DNA of 49,177 bases, from assembly GCA_049598495.1 (NCBI GenBank), contig JBMYNR010000009.1:1-49177 (forward strand). Direction: 5' to 3'. Position numbers: made by a program. Within the stretch, counting starts at the first letter, position 1. Each line of letters begins with the position of its first letter. The DNA comes from Opitutales bacterium (GTDB taxonomy: Bacteria; Verrucomicrobiota; Verrucomicrobiia; Opitutales; Coraliomargaritaceae). This document shows positions 21,001 through 24,000 of this stretch, in pieces.

Positions 21001-24000
21001 ACCGAGGACGGATCGTGCGCCCTTGTTGATACCCGATCCGCCTCGGGAAGCTCCCACATTCTTGAATTGAGTGCAGAAACACCTTGAATTGAAGGCCAAA
21101 GGCGACTTGTTATCAAACTATGGAAATCGCGGACTATTATCCGATACTCATACAAATTACCATTGCGGCCAGTATTGGTGCTGTCGTCCTGCTCGCGTCG
21201 AACATCTTCGGGCAGCGCGCCGGCACGACGGAGATCAAGGATTCCCCTTATGAATGTGGCATGCTTGCCGAGGGCTCTGGGCATGCGCGATTTGCAGTCA
21301 AGTTCTACGTGACAGCGATGCTCTTTATTCTTTTCGATATCGAAGTTGTATTCCTTATCCCGTGGGTGCTTGTTTTTCGTGAATTTCTGGCGGTGAACCT
21401 TCCCATTGTTATCCCCGTCTTTTTCTTTCTCTTTGTCCTCGTCCTCGGGCTATTTTATGAGTTAAAGAAGGGTGCGATTGAATGGGAGCAGTAAACCGGT
21501 TGATTGGACGGAACTTGTTGGATGTAAGATGGTTGTTGTCTTTCGCCAACTTTCTACGATATTTAAAACTGGCGGTCCGATCGGTCGCTCATATTCAAAC
21601 TCTGTCAAATTCCAAAAAACCAGTTAGCTGCTAAATGCGCATCGATCGATACATCGCCCAATCCCGTGTCATTGACCTCGAGAGCACGGATTTTGAGAGC
21701 GCTGTATCGGAACTTTTGGAAGTCTGTGACTTTTCGAAGGAGCGGGGTATCTCAAAGAAGAAACTACTCGCCGAACTCATGATGCGCGAGGAGCAGATGA
21801 CGACCTATCTTGGGAGCGGTGTCTGTCTGCCCCACTGCCGCGTGAAAATGAAGCGGCCTTACATGGTCGCTGTGGGGCGCTGCCCCAACGGTCTCGTCTA
21901 TGATGGGCAAACGGAATATCACGAGATTCGTTATATTTTCCTTCTTCTCGCATCGGAGAATGCCCGAAGCTATCTCTACAGTCTGGCATCACTCGCTCGT
22001 GTATTCCAGGATCAAGGTCATATGGACCGCTTGCGGTCGGCCGAAAAGCTCGGTGATTTCCGGAAGGAGCTGAAGTTGGTTTTCGGAGGTGAAGAGGGTA
22101 AGCCACGCCGGCGTCATAACCGCTTTAATAACCTCATCTTAAAGGAGGCGGCGAAGATCGCTAAGGGAGCACAATGCACCTCGGTCTTGGTCTTTTCCGA
22201 CACCTTTGGTGGCGGGGTTGAATTAGGTAAGACGATCTTCAGGAGTTTTAAGACCGTTCTGATCTCGCACGGAACCTCAGAGGCAATTACCGAGCGCGAG
22301 GAGGTGGACTCGGTCATTCCTATCCGCTCGTATAGCAACCATCGTTTTTCTCAGCTGCGCAGTGCTGTCTTGATTGGTTTAACTCGGGGGATTTTCTCTA
22401 GTCACGATCGACTTTGCTGTATCGGCGGTCTGCCCCAGAGTAACCAGTTTGATAGTATCACGGTGGTGGATGTTGAGCGCGAGTTTGATACGATGCTTGC
22501 GAGCAAGTCGGATATGTTGCCGGCAAGTGTGAGGCCCGAGGTGATTGAACGGGTTTTAGCAATTGCGACTGAATTGGCGGTCGAGGGGCGCGAGGGGCAT
22601 CCTGTTGGCTGTCTGTTTACACTCGGGAATGCTGAATTGATCGCCGAATATACGAAGCCACTCATTCTGAATCCTTTCTTCGGTTACAAGGACGAGGATC
22701 GAAATATTCTGAACCCATTTATGGACGAGACCGTTAAGGAGCTATCATCTATTGACGGTGCCTTTGTTATTCGCGGTGACGGTGTCCTCGTATCTGCCGG
22801 ATCCTTGCTACATGCTCCGGACTACGATCATGATTTACCAAGTGGGCTTGGTAGTCGCCATGCGGCGGCCGCTTCGATTACCCAAGCGGTTGATTGCCTC
22901 TGTATTGTGGTTTCCGGAAGCACGGGGCAGGTGACTCTCTTCCGGCGTGGCAAGATGCTACCACTGATTGAGAAGGCATTGCTTCGGAATAGTTGATTAC
23001 AGGTGCGACGGTAGTAAGGTAAAAGGTGCTAAAGTTTAACCTTTCCCCTGTTCAACTTTCCCACATTCATACTTTTTTATGAATCGTATCGAAAGAGCCT
23101 TCGCTAACGCACGTGAGCAGAACCGCGCCGCCTTTGTCGGGTACCTCTGTGCGGGCGACCCGAATTTTGAGAGCTCGCTTGAAGCCTGTCGTGCCGTGGT
23201 CGAGTCCGGTGTCGATATCCTCGAGTTGGGTGTGCCGTTCTCGGACCCTTTGGCGGACGGATTGACCAATCAACTGGCGGCGCAGCGTGCCCTCGAAAGT
23301 GGTATGACCAGCGAGCGCGTCCTGGAACTCGTTCGGGCGGTTCGTCAGTTCAGCGAGGTGCCGATCGTATTTTATACCTACTATAACCTCGTGTTTGCGC
23401 AGGGGAGTGAGCAATACGCCGAACGTGCCAAAGCTGCGGGAGTGGATGGGATCCTTACCTTGGATCTTCCCCCCGAGGAGGCCGGCGATCATATAGAGGC
23501 CTGTGCCAAGCATGGTATTAAGACAATTTGTATCGTGGCGCCGACCACGCCCGATTCTCGACTGGATGTTATCTGTAAAGCGACGACAGGTTTCGTTTAC
23601 TACGTCTCGCGCGAGGGGGTGACGGGTGAGCAAGCCTCCATGTCGGAGGGAATCCGTGATCGGGTTGAGACGATCAAACAATACACGGACCTCCCAGTGG
23701 TCGTTGGTTTTGGGATCTCTAATCCGGAGCATGTCAACACGGTGGCACAAGCGGCCGACGGTGTCGTTGTCGGGAGTGCAATCGTCAATTGCATTGCTGA
23801 GAATCCGGAGGATACCGATGCAATCAGTGGAGCCTTGCGTTGTAAAATGGGTTTTCTGCTGGAGGGAGAGGCGCTGTCCAAAGCCTGAGAGGCGGGTGTT
23901 TCCCAAAGCTGTATGATTCTCTCAGGCGTTCTTCTGCCCGGTGACCACTTCCATTAGAGCTTCGACGCATTCGATCTTTGCGCTAGGGATCATTCCGTGG

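Follow-up and report, generated by a model that had tools for sequence, protein, structure and literature searches.

What a PTS EIIA domain does at the front of a diadenylate cyclase is the question raised by a gene in the window analyzed here, a stretch of 49,177 nucleotides from an Opitutales bacterium. An earlier note on this DNA had proposed that the PTS relay of the organism feeds the cyclase's own EIIA domain. The domains of the gene product, the PTS components encoded in the host genome and the conservation of the EIIA site among relatives were used to evaluate this proposal and its alternatives.

Domain architecture of the cyclase

The cyclase gene (21635..22996, + strand, stop codon included) is an intact open reading frame of 453 amino acids that starts with ATG and has no internal stop codon. 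Three Pfam domains were detected in its product, in agreement with the fusion described in the earlier note. The first is a PTS_EIIA_2 domain of the Ntr/Fru/Mtl type (PF00359; residues 27-146, 21713..22072, + strand; 2.2e-19, 70.3 bits against a cut-off of 27). It is followed by DacZ_P (PF21755; residues 162-286, 22118..22492, + strand; 5.3e-17, 62.1 bits against a cut-off of 27.4, profile positions 1-125 of 125), a pyruvate-kinase-C-like and probable sensor domain, and by the DAC catalytic domain (DisA_N, PF02457; residues 315-441, 22577..22957, + strand; 4.7e-20, 71.8 bits against a cut-off of 27, profile positions 3-119 of 119). DacZ_P stands directly N-terminal to DAC, as it does in cyclases of the DacZ/CdaZ type.

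The EIIA domain contains the motif GSGVCLPH at residues 60-67, where it had been placed before, and H67 (codon 21833..21835, + strand), the predicted phospho-acceptor, aligns with the His of GVAIPH in solved PtsN chains. The upstream R51 and E52 were present together with P66 and H67. The AlphaFold2 model of the protein was compact (mean pLDDT 92, pTM 0.86), with the EIIA domain packed tightly onto the other two domains. The best structural matches of the EIIA part were IIA-Ntr/PtsN structures (2a0j, 3urr, and 4gqx; TM-score (target) 0.80-0.82), and the fold of the DAC part matched CdaA and DisA.

The DAC domain has the DGA motif at residues 374-376 (22754..22762, + strand), of which D and G were conserved in all 129 aligned representatives and A in 122. 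At the position of the RHR motif the sequence is RHA (residues 408-410, 22856..22864, + strand). R and H were found there in 128 and 126 of the 129 representatives, respectively, and the third residue was Ala in 59 and Arg in 13; since Ala is the commonest third residue in the class, the departure from RHR is class-typical. The DAC family had a single match in the genome, which was this gene product. From its sequence the protein is predicted to be the cell's only c-di-AMP synthase, a soluble DacZ-type enzyme with an EIIA(Ntr)-like receiver in front.

The closest known enzymes are archaeal DacZ and CdaZ, in which a PK_C-like N-terminal sensor domain likewise precedes DAC. The N-domain of DacZ is described as having a PK_C-like fold (PMC6741144), and the function of the PK_C-like domain of DacZ-type enzymes is given as unknown (PMC10249747). 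DacZ of Haloferax volcanii is reported to be an essential, Mn-dependent cyclase and CdaZ of Methanocaldococcus jannaschii to be active in vitro (PMC6741144, PMC10249747). The Opitutales cyclase differs from these proteins in being bacterial and in having an additional EIIA domain of about 150 amino acids in front, and the mscS neighbor of the archaeal genes was not found at its locus. The NCBIfam DacZ model (NF041371) matched residues 239-442 (5.3e-32), and with 111 bits against a cut-off of 430 the cyclase is a relative of the haloarchaeal DacZ equivalog rather than an equivalog itself. The EIIA domain shares its fold and its R-E and x-P-H site with EIIA-Ntr (PtsN), but it is fused to an enzyme, has Tyr in place of the second His and is encoded outside an rpoN cluster; its scores of 29.5 bits against 138.7 (TIGR01419) and 21.5 against 221 (NF008145) place it outside the PtsN equivalogs.

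PTS components of the host genome and a candidate phosphorelay

The host genome (1.75 Mb, 73 contigs, 95.4% complete) encodes EI with all three domains, HPr with GIHARPA (His15-like) and GKSIMG (Ser46-like) sites, and an HprK that is complete in both its N and C domains, as had been claimed. The HPr sites GIHxRPA and GKSIM were kept in all 29 aligned orthologues. The claim that a PTS permease is missing held for the families PTS_EIIC, EII-Sor, PTS_IIB, and EIIC-GAT, none of which was found in the 95.4%-complete genome, in an inventory that leaves out EIID-AGA, EII-GUT, PTS_EIIC_2, PTS_EIIB (PF00367), and PTSIIB_sorb. The genome thus resembles those with a regulatory, transporter-less PTS.

Two EIIA_2 matches were detected, the cyclase and a protein encoded at C27:4328-6562 (- strand) that combines Na_H_Exchanger, TrkA_N and EIIA_2 domains and has Asn for His in its site (GHGIAIPN). 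EIIA_1 and EIIA-man had no match in the genome at its 95.4% completeness. The cyclase is therefore the sole His-bearing EIIA protein among the EIIA_2, EIIA_1, and EIIA-man families, the range within which its description as the only phosphorylatable EIIA was borne out; PF02255 and PF03829 lie outside this inventory. A complex prediction for the full-length cyclase and HPr, run without controls, gave a score of 0.00 (mark, 0.32) and was weighed neither for nor against an interaction. The c-di-AMP riboswitch RF00379 had no match in the genome. EI was present in 300 of the 301 genomes of the phylum sample, so its presence is not specific evidence about the cyclase and the relay has not been retained for the cyclase alone; co-occurrence with EI across the phylum was set aside as uninformative.

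In the relay as we propose it, PEP would phosphorylate EI, EI~P would phosphorylate HPr at its His15-like residue, and HPr~P would pass the phosphate to His67 of the EIIA domain. HprK, by phosphorylating the Ser46-like residue of HPr, would gate this flow. Whether the EIIA domain is phosphorylated would then alter how readily two DAC domains pair head to head and, with it, the rate of c-di-AMP synthesis, and the DacZ_P domain may supply a second, metabolite input. As the search turned up no PTS permease, the relay would signal PEP/pyruvate and the carbon-nitrogen state rather than sugar uptake. Architecture, motifs, gene inventory, conservation and the comparative pattern are observed, whereas the phosphotransfer to the cyclase and its effect on catalysis are inferred, and that effect could be activation or inhibition.

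The proposed logic has counterparts in other bacteria. EIIA-Glc acts on adenylate cyclase, and EIIA-Ntr acts on SpoT and (p)ppGpp in Caulobacter. In both, the synthesis of a nucleotide second messenger depends on the phosphorylation state of an EIIA, as it would in the proposed relay. There, EIIA is a protein of its own that works in trans, with cAMP or (p)ppGpp as the messenger, whereas in the Opitutales cyclase the EIIA domain would act in cis and the messenger would be c-di-AMP. A literature search found no paper that links EIIA to DAC or that studies an EIIA-DAC protein.

Distribution of the fusion and conservation of the EIIA site

The three-domain fusion is order-wide in Opitutales, where it was detected in 60 of 62 and 57 of 61 genomes in two samples and kept one fixed domain order at 43-89% identity, and it is rare in the rest of the phylum. 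The homology search gave 2343 matches. The best 120 of these all had the three Pfam domains, were 74-100% identical and 451-454 amino acids long, and came from Coraliomargarita, Lentimonas, Puniceicoccaceae, and Opitutaceae, which reproduced the domain content, identities and lengths reported earlier. The best 80 of 588 relatives by locus were all of Opitutales type, and cultured hosts among the relatives include Coraliomargarita, Lentimonas, and Cephaloticoccus capnophilus. More distant clusters are 28-35% identical, and among ten distant cluster representatives, a taxon was given for two (Verrucomicrobiia and Puniceicoccales).

The cyclase is the usual, already catalogued enzyme of its order. 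The diadenylate cyclase class 'DacD', in the nomenclature of Corrigan and Gruendling (2013) as used by Braun et al. (2019; PMC6741144), is represented in the appendix of the latter by Lacunisphaera limnophila, Puniceicoccaceae, Coraliomargarita sp., Verrucomicrobia, and Opitutae. These taxa match the hosts of the close homologues of the cyclase, which on this likeness in taxa is a probable member of the class; neither PTS nor EIIA is mentioned in that paper. The earlier note had acknowledged that the class was named; its claim of a new mode of cyclase control is, with what is probably its class already called 'DacD' (PMC6741144), overstated as a sequence finding. Sources list the protein as 'diadenylate cyclase' or as 'PTS sugar transporter subunit IIA'. 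The second name is misleading for the cyclase, and no cognate EIIB/EIIC permease was detected among the families searched.

The EIIA domain was the least conserved part of the protein everywhere it was compared. When 88 full-length sequences, each representing a 50%-identity cluster, were aligned with MAFFT, the only EIIA positions conserved in at least 90% were R51, E52, A64, P66, H67, G86, and L117; the strongly conserved positions are active-site positions only. R51, E52, P66, and H67 were each kept in 80-87 of the 88 representatives (P66 in 87, H67 in 82). The second conserved EIIA His is replaced by Y113 in the cyclase, at a position that we take to be that of PtsN His120 and IIA-Mtl His111. 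The residue there was His in 56, Tyr in 17, and Phe in 8 representatives, and Tyr in nearly all Opitutales checked.

These patterns bear on the strongest alternative, which is that the EIIA domain is a phosphorylation-independent regulatory domain of structural, dimerizing or ligand- or partner-binding function, that its His pocket serves for binding and that the PTS relay has other targets. Tyr at the second His position in the lineage and the tight packing of the EIIA domain in the model would fit such a role. The positions under constraint are exactly the phosphotransfer signature (R-E and A-x-P-H), however, the His persists across diverse clusters, and the three EIIA families searched offer HPr no other His-bearing partner. 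We regard this alternative as unlikely, although less so than the others considered, and the fate of His67 in genomes that have lost the relay speaks to it from both sides.

In the order sample of 61 genomes, neither EI nor HPr was found in six. His67 was kept in 42 of the 45 genomes in which both EI and HPr were found and in 3 of the 6 in which neither was found (0.8-1.0 Mb, 92-95% complete; Fisher's exact test, p = 0.017, with relatives that are not independent). Among the relay-less genomes, His67 was replaced by Asn in G307 and in G343, which has also lost Pro66, and the entire EIIA domain was deleted in G329; two of the three that kept His67 lacked Arg51. Tyr occupied the position in G303, in which EI was not found. 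All 20 DAC key positions were intact in the six relay-less genomes and in G303. Losses of His67 were spread over four families, three of which also hold a His-keeping member. His67 or the whole EIIA domain thus decays preferentially where EI and HPr are lost while the DAC residues stay intact, and this more frequent decay argues against a domain that works independently of phosphorylation. The counterpoint is that reduced genomes evolve fast in general.

On the other side, His67 was replaced in genomes in which EI and HPr were found (Tyr in G304 and G337, Asn in G195), and Ser occupied the position in G276, which kept EI, so that the protein can evidently do without the His. Five of the six relay-less genomes kept the EIIA domain and three kept the His, which indicates that the domain has some role for which phosphorylation is not needed. 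The proposal of the earlier note is therefore upheld only in part: active-site-only conservation and the decay of the His or the domain without EI and HPr support a relay that feeds the EIIA domain, and the Tyr, Asn, and Ser replacements in relay-keeping lineages weaken it. Weighing both, we consider it probable, from sequence comparison, that PTS phosphorylation of H67 tunes c-di-AMP synthesis.

A less likely alternative is that the domain is phosphorylated as a tethered PtsN that acts outward, for example on K+ transporters, or as a phosphate sink, and leaves cyclase activity unchanged. PtsN controls K+ uptake in Escherichia coli, the nearest structures of the EIIA domain are those of IIA-Ntr/PtsN, the EIIA_2 search found no free EIIA in the genome, and TrkA-type proteins with RCK_C domains are encoded in it. 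The domain order, fixed across Opitutales despite wide divergence, and the confident, compact model point instead to domains that work together, and some Opitutaceae also have free EIIA-sized frames of about 160 amino acids, which makes the outward role doubtful. It is very improbable that the EIIA domain is only a relic in decay or that RHA marks a dead cyclase. The third RHR residue is changed, and the EIIA His or the entire domain has gone in some lineages, but Ala is the class-typical residue beside near invariant DGA and RH, the protein is the sole DAC of the genome, and its best homologues are closely similar across genera. Two marine RNA libraries also contain nearly identical pieces of the gene, a weak point because DNA carry-over is possible.

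Gene neighborhood and biological meaning

Upstream of the cyclase gene and on the same strand is nuoA (21120..21494, + strand; NADH dehydrogenase subunit A/ND3 homologue, Pfam Oxidored_q4, 1.6e-29), which ends 140 bp before it and, as the genome's only nuoA, lies away from the nuoB-N operon. Of the 75 related loci listed, 73 have a nuoA-like gene at most 600 bp before the cyclase gene and on its strand, and no terminator-like site was found on the + strand between the two genes. A contig from an RNA library bridges the 3' end of nuoA into the spacer; the fractions of sampled words present in the RNA-library runs were 0.18 and 0.11, and the four short contigs placed on the locus record presence in RNA libraries and not transcript structure or level, with no meaning attached to uncovered parts. 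The two genes are possibly co-transcribed. As the pair was not adjacent in G004, G008, G104, G304, G337, and eight small genomes (0.8-1.0 Mb) checked, pairing as a general rule was rejected, and we take it to be synteny of the lineage that may also have a functional side. Further upstream is an open reading frame of 448 amino acids (19724..21070, + strand) with no Pfam family and a true start that is probably later. It has a same-strand counterpart upstream in 53 of the 68 related loci listed, and its language-model look-alikes score 0.96 to DUF362-type clusters, which is a lead only.

The broader picture can be drawn tentatively, with less assurance than the tuning of synthesis by H67. In Opitutales, a transporter-less PTS of EI, HPr, and HprK may end on one acceptor, the sole c-di-AMP synthase, so that PtsN-type sensing of carbon, nitrogen and K+ and the control of K+ and osmolytes by c-di-AMP would meet in one protein whose gene is paired, and perhaps co-transcribed, with the sole nuoA. 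If functional, this pairing could tie c-di-AMP synthesis to the building of the respiratory chain. In a cyclase that has its own PTS receiver, the input is defined and open to test with PEP, EI, and HPr. If the proposal is true, it would provide a function for the permease-less PTS found throughout Verrucomicrobiota, and two regulatory systems that are separate elsewhere would be joined in a single protein.

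Domain anatomy and distribution of the cyclase

The cyclase gene (21635..22996, + strand) is an uninterrupted open reading frame of 453 amino acids. Each of its three domains, PTS_EIIA_2 (residues 27-146), DacZ_P (162-286) and DAC (315-441), matched its Pfam model far above the curated cut-off, and the anatomy had been read correctly in the earlier note. The haloarchaeal DacZ model of NCBIfam matched at 5.3e-32 and 111 bits, below its cut-off of 430, and the NCBIfam fruA-type and PtsN-type EIIA models also gave sub-threshold matches. The best sequence matches among solved chains were PtsN (4gqx, 1.9e-7) and CdaA; when aligned to solved chains, His67 of the cyclase motif GSGVCLPH fell on the His of PtsN GVAIPH. 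The cyclase has Tyr in place of the second His found in PtsN-type domains. The DAC domain contains the motifs DGA (374-376) and RHA (408-410). Of 129 representatives, 59 had Ala and 13 had Arg at the third RHA position, and D, G, R and H were nearly invariant. The AlphaFold2 model, based on 104 aligned sequences, was confident and compact (mean pLDDT 92, pTM 0.86). By Foldseek, its first domain was closest to IIA-Ntr structures (TM-score on the target 0.80-0.82) and its last domain to CdaA and DisA. The matches listed included no DacZ/CdaZ structure.

A word-index search with the cyclase recovered 2343 homologues, the best 120 of which all had the three domains at 74-100% identity, came from Coraliomargarita, Lentimonas, Puniceicoccaceae and Opitutaceae, and were named 'PTS sugar transporter subunit IIA' or 'diadenylate cyclase'. 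When the 50%-identity representatives were searched exhaustively, 2597 matched (E up to 0.001); the best 150 comprised 88 full-length three-domain proteins (27-50% identity), 41 DacZ_P-DAC proteins without EIIA, and 21 fragments or other forms. Besides this genome, the order contributed 62 genomes to the phylum sample of 301, and 60 of them had the full-length fusion; outside the order it was detected at full length only in G004, G008 and G104 (29-35% identity). DAC matches were present in 57 of 61 genomes of the order sample, which was spread over families; 54 covered the full length within a single frame or locus, two were cut at contig ends (G305 and G315) and one lacked the EIIA part (G329). 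Among loci in named genomes (588 in all), the best 80 were all of the Opitutales type, including that of the cultured Cephaloticoccus capnophilus CV41. Two Opitutales-type fusion contigs (L022 and L076; 79% and 53% identity) are labelled as Polaribacter sp. and Akkermansia muciniphila MAGs, records that are probably mis-binned or mislabelled. Some larger Opitutales genomes contain a second, EIIA-less DacZ_P-DAC-like copy (300-344-aa frames, 28-32% identity); such copies lie at G138:C8:21923-22624 and G346:C1:1270716-1271603.

Braun et al. (2019; PMC6741144) list in their appendix a 'DacD' class, with representatives from Lacunisphaera, Puniceicoccaceae, Coraliomargarita, Verrucomicrobia and Opitutae; the words PTS and EIIA appear nowhere in PMC6741144. 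A 2026 gut survey (PMC12901056) names Verrucomicrobiota as the phylum in which DacZ-type cyclases are chiefly found. No paper linking EIIA to DAC was found in our literature search, outside which lay Galperin (2023) and the 2013 class-naming review. The earlier note spoke of a new mode of cyclase control; in architecture, the protein is the common cyclase of its order and already bears a name.

Conservation within the EIIA domain was narrow. Only R51, E52, A64, P66, H67, G86 and L117 were kept in at least 90% of the 88 full-length representatives; position 64, Ala in the class, is Cys in this cyclase. H67 was present in 82 of the 88, and the position of the PtsN-type second His was less well kept (H in 56, Y in 17, F in 8). 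Judged by alignment, the conserved positions are a phosphotransfer signature and not the general fold core, which speaks against the domain being a relic.

PTS and c-di-AMP proteins of the genome

The assembly comprises 1.75 Mb in 73 contigs and is 95.4% complete; the window is contig C9. EIIA_2 had two matches, the cyclase gene and C27:4328-6562 (- strand; L010). The latter encodes a 745-aa cation/proton antiporter (Na_H_Exchanger and TrkA_N) whose C-terminal EIIA_2 domain has the site GHGIAIPN, with Asn for the phospho-His. Here an ion transporter may employ the EIIA fold in a second, non-phosphorylatable role. In the phylum sample, EIIA matches recurred in frames of 600-760 aa. EIIA_1 and EIIA-man had no match in this 95.4% complete genome, and none of four permease families searched (PTS_EIIC, EII-Sor, PTS_IIB and EIIC-GAT) was found. 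All three EI domains are present, the HPr of 101 aa carries both GIHARPA and GKSIMG, and HprK has N and C domains. The earlier inventory of a phosphotransferase relay with one phosphorylatable EIIA and no permease was therefore borne out within the EIIA and permease families searched. The hprK gene lies directly 3' of an ABC ATPase gene, possibly lptB-like (G000:C2:8124-9847; L008), an order that recalls the lptB-rpoN-ptsN neighbourhood of Proteobacteria.

DAC had a single match. As candidate downstream components, three RCK_C-domain proteins, one of them TrkA-like, and a 349-aa DHH/DHHA1-type frame, a candidate phosphodiesterase, were also detected; no c-di-AMP riboswitch was found in the genome.

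Neighbourhood of the cyclase gene

The cyclase gene is surrounded by housekeeping genes (rpoD, dnaG, a TPR protein gene, trpA, hemE and hemF). The genome's sole nuoA-like gene (21120..21494, + strand) precedes the cyclase gene in the same orientation, with 140 bp between them, and 73 of 75 related Opitutales loci likewise had a nuoA-like gene in that orientation no more than 600 bp upstream (the median gap being 60 bp). On C21, the nuo operon (L092, G000:C21:4000-18000) begins with nuoB; a 23S rRNA intervening-sequence-protein-like gene (PF05635, 2.9e-33) lies between its nuoF and nuoG at L092 9766..10128. No terminator-like site was found on the + strand between nuoA and the cyclase gene. Two marine RNA libraries (runs X1 and X2) contain short contigs near-identical to 21426..21841 and 22276..22473, which cover the end of nuoA, the spacer and parts of the cyclase gene; some of them span the junction of nuoA with the spacer or that of the spacer with the cyclase start. 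DNA carry-over being possible, they hint weakly at co-transcription. The pair was not found in the distant fusions, family f64 or small genomes checked, and so may be inherited synteny. Further upstream, a 448-aa open reading frame (19724..21070, + strand) has a signal-peptide-like stretch and no Pfam match; of 68 related loci, 53 had a counterpart upstream in the same orientation. The language-model look-alikes of this frame, DUF362-type Verrucomicrobiota clusters (score 0.96), provide a lead only.

The EIIA site in genomes with and without the relay

EI was found in 300 of the 301 phylum genomes, so its plain co-occurrence with the cyclase is uninformative. The order sample includes six reduced genomes (0.8-1.0 Mb, 92-95% complete; G307, G316, G329, G336, G338 and G343; loci L153-L159) in which family models found neither EI nor HPr and which kept the cyclase with catalytic residues intact; DAC key positions were 20/20 intact in seven EI-less genomes. 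The EIIA site was read in every genome of this sample. His67 was present in 42 of 45 genomes with both EI and HPr, the exceptions being G195 (Asn) and two members of one family, G304 and G337 (Tyr; L173 and L174), and in three of the six relay-less genomes (Fisher's exact test, 42/3 vs 3/3, p = 0.017, with relatives not independent and small genomes evolving fast). Among these six, G316 kept the EIIA site, G336 and G338 kept His67 with Arg51 changed to Ser and His, respectively, G307 had Asn for His67, and G343 had Asn and had lost Pro66 and R-E as well. The G329 cyclase is a natural EIIA-less form that starts at DacZ_P, shortly after an unrelated open reading frame ends. Where one of EI and HPr was not found (six genomes), His67 was present in four (G315, G310, G325 and G024), was Tyr in the reduced, one-contig genome G303 (EI not found; L160) and was unreadable at a contig end in G305.

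Losses at the His67 site were spread over four families, three of which also had a His-keeping member, so the losses look recent and repeated. Taken as a comparative pattern, this distribution of His67 lends moderate support to the view that the residue is retained because the relay uses it. The support has its limits, since the EIIA domain also survives in genomes without the relay, and two relay-bearing lineages lack His67 and have Tyr (f64) or Asn or Ser (f7, including G276 from the phylum sample).

The proposal that the relay switches c-di-AMP synthesis through the cyclase's own EIIA domain thus gains comparative support from the His67 pattern and is plausible; the phosphotransfer itself we infer from sequence. 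The best-supported reading, also a plausible one, is a chain that would run from PEP through EI and the His of HPr to His67 of the cyclase, with HprK gating HPr and the PK_C-like domain perhaps providing another input. Depending on its state, the EIIA domain would then influence how DAC domains pair with each other and, through this, the synthesis of c-di-AMP.
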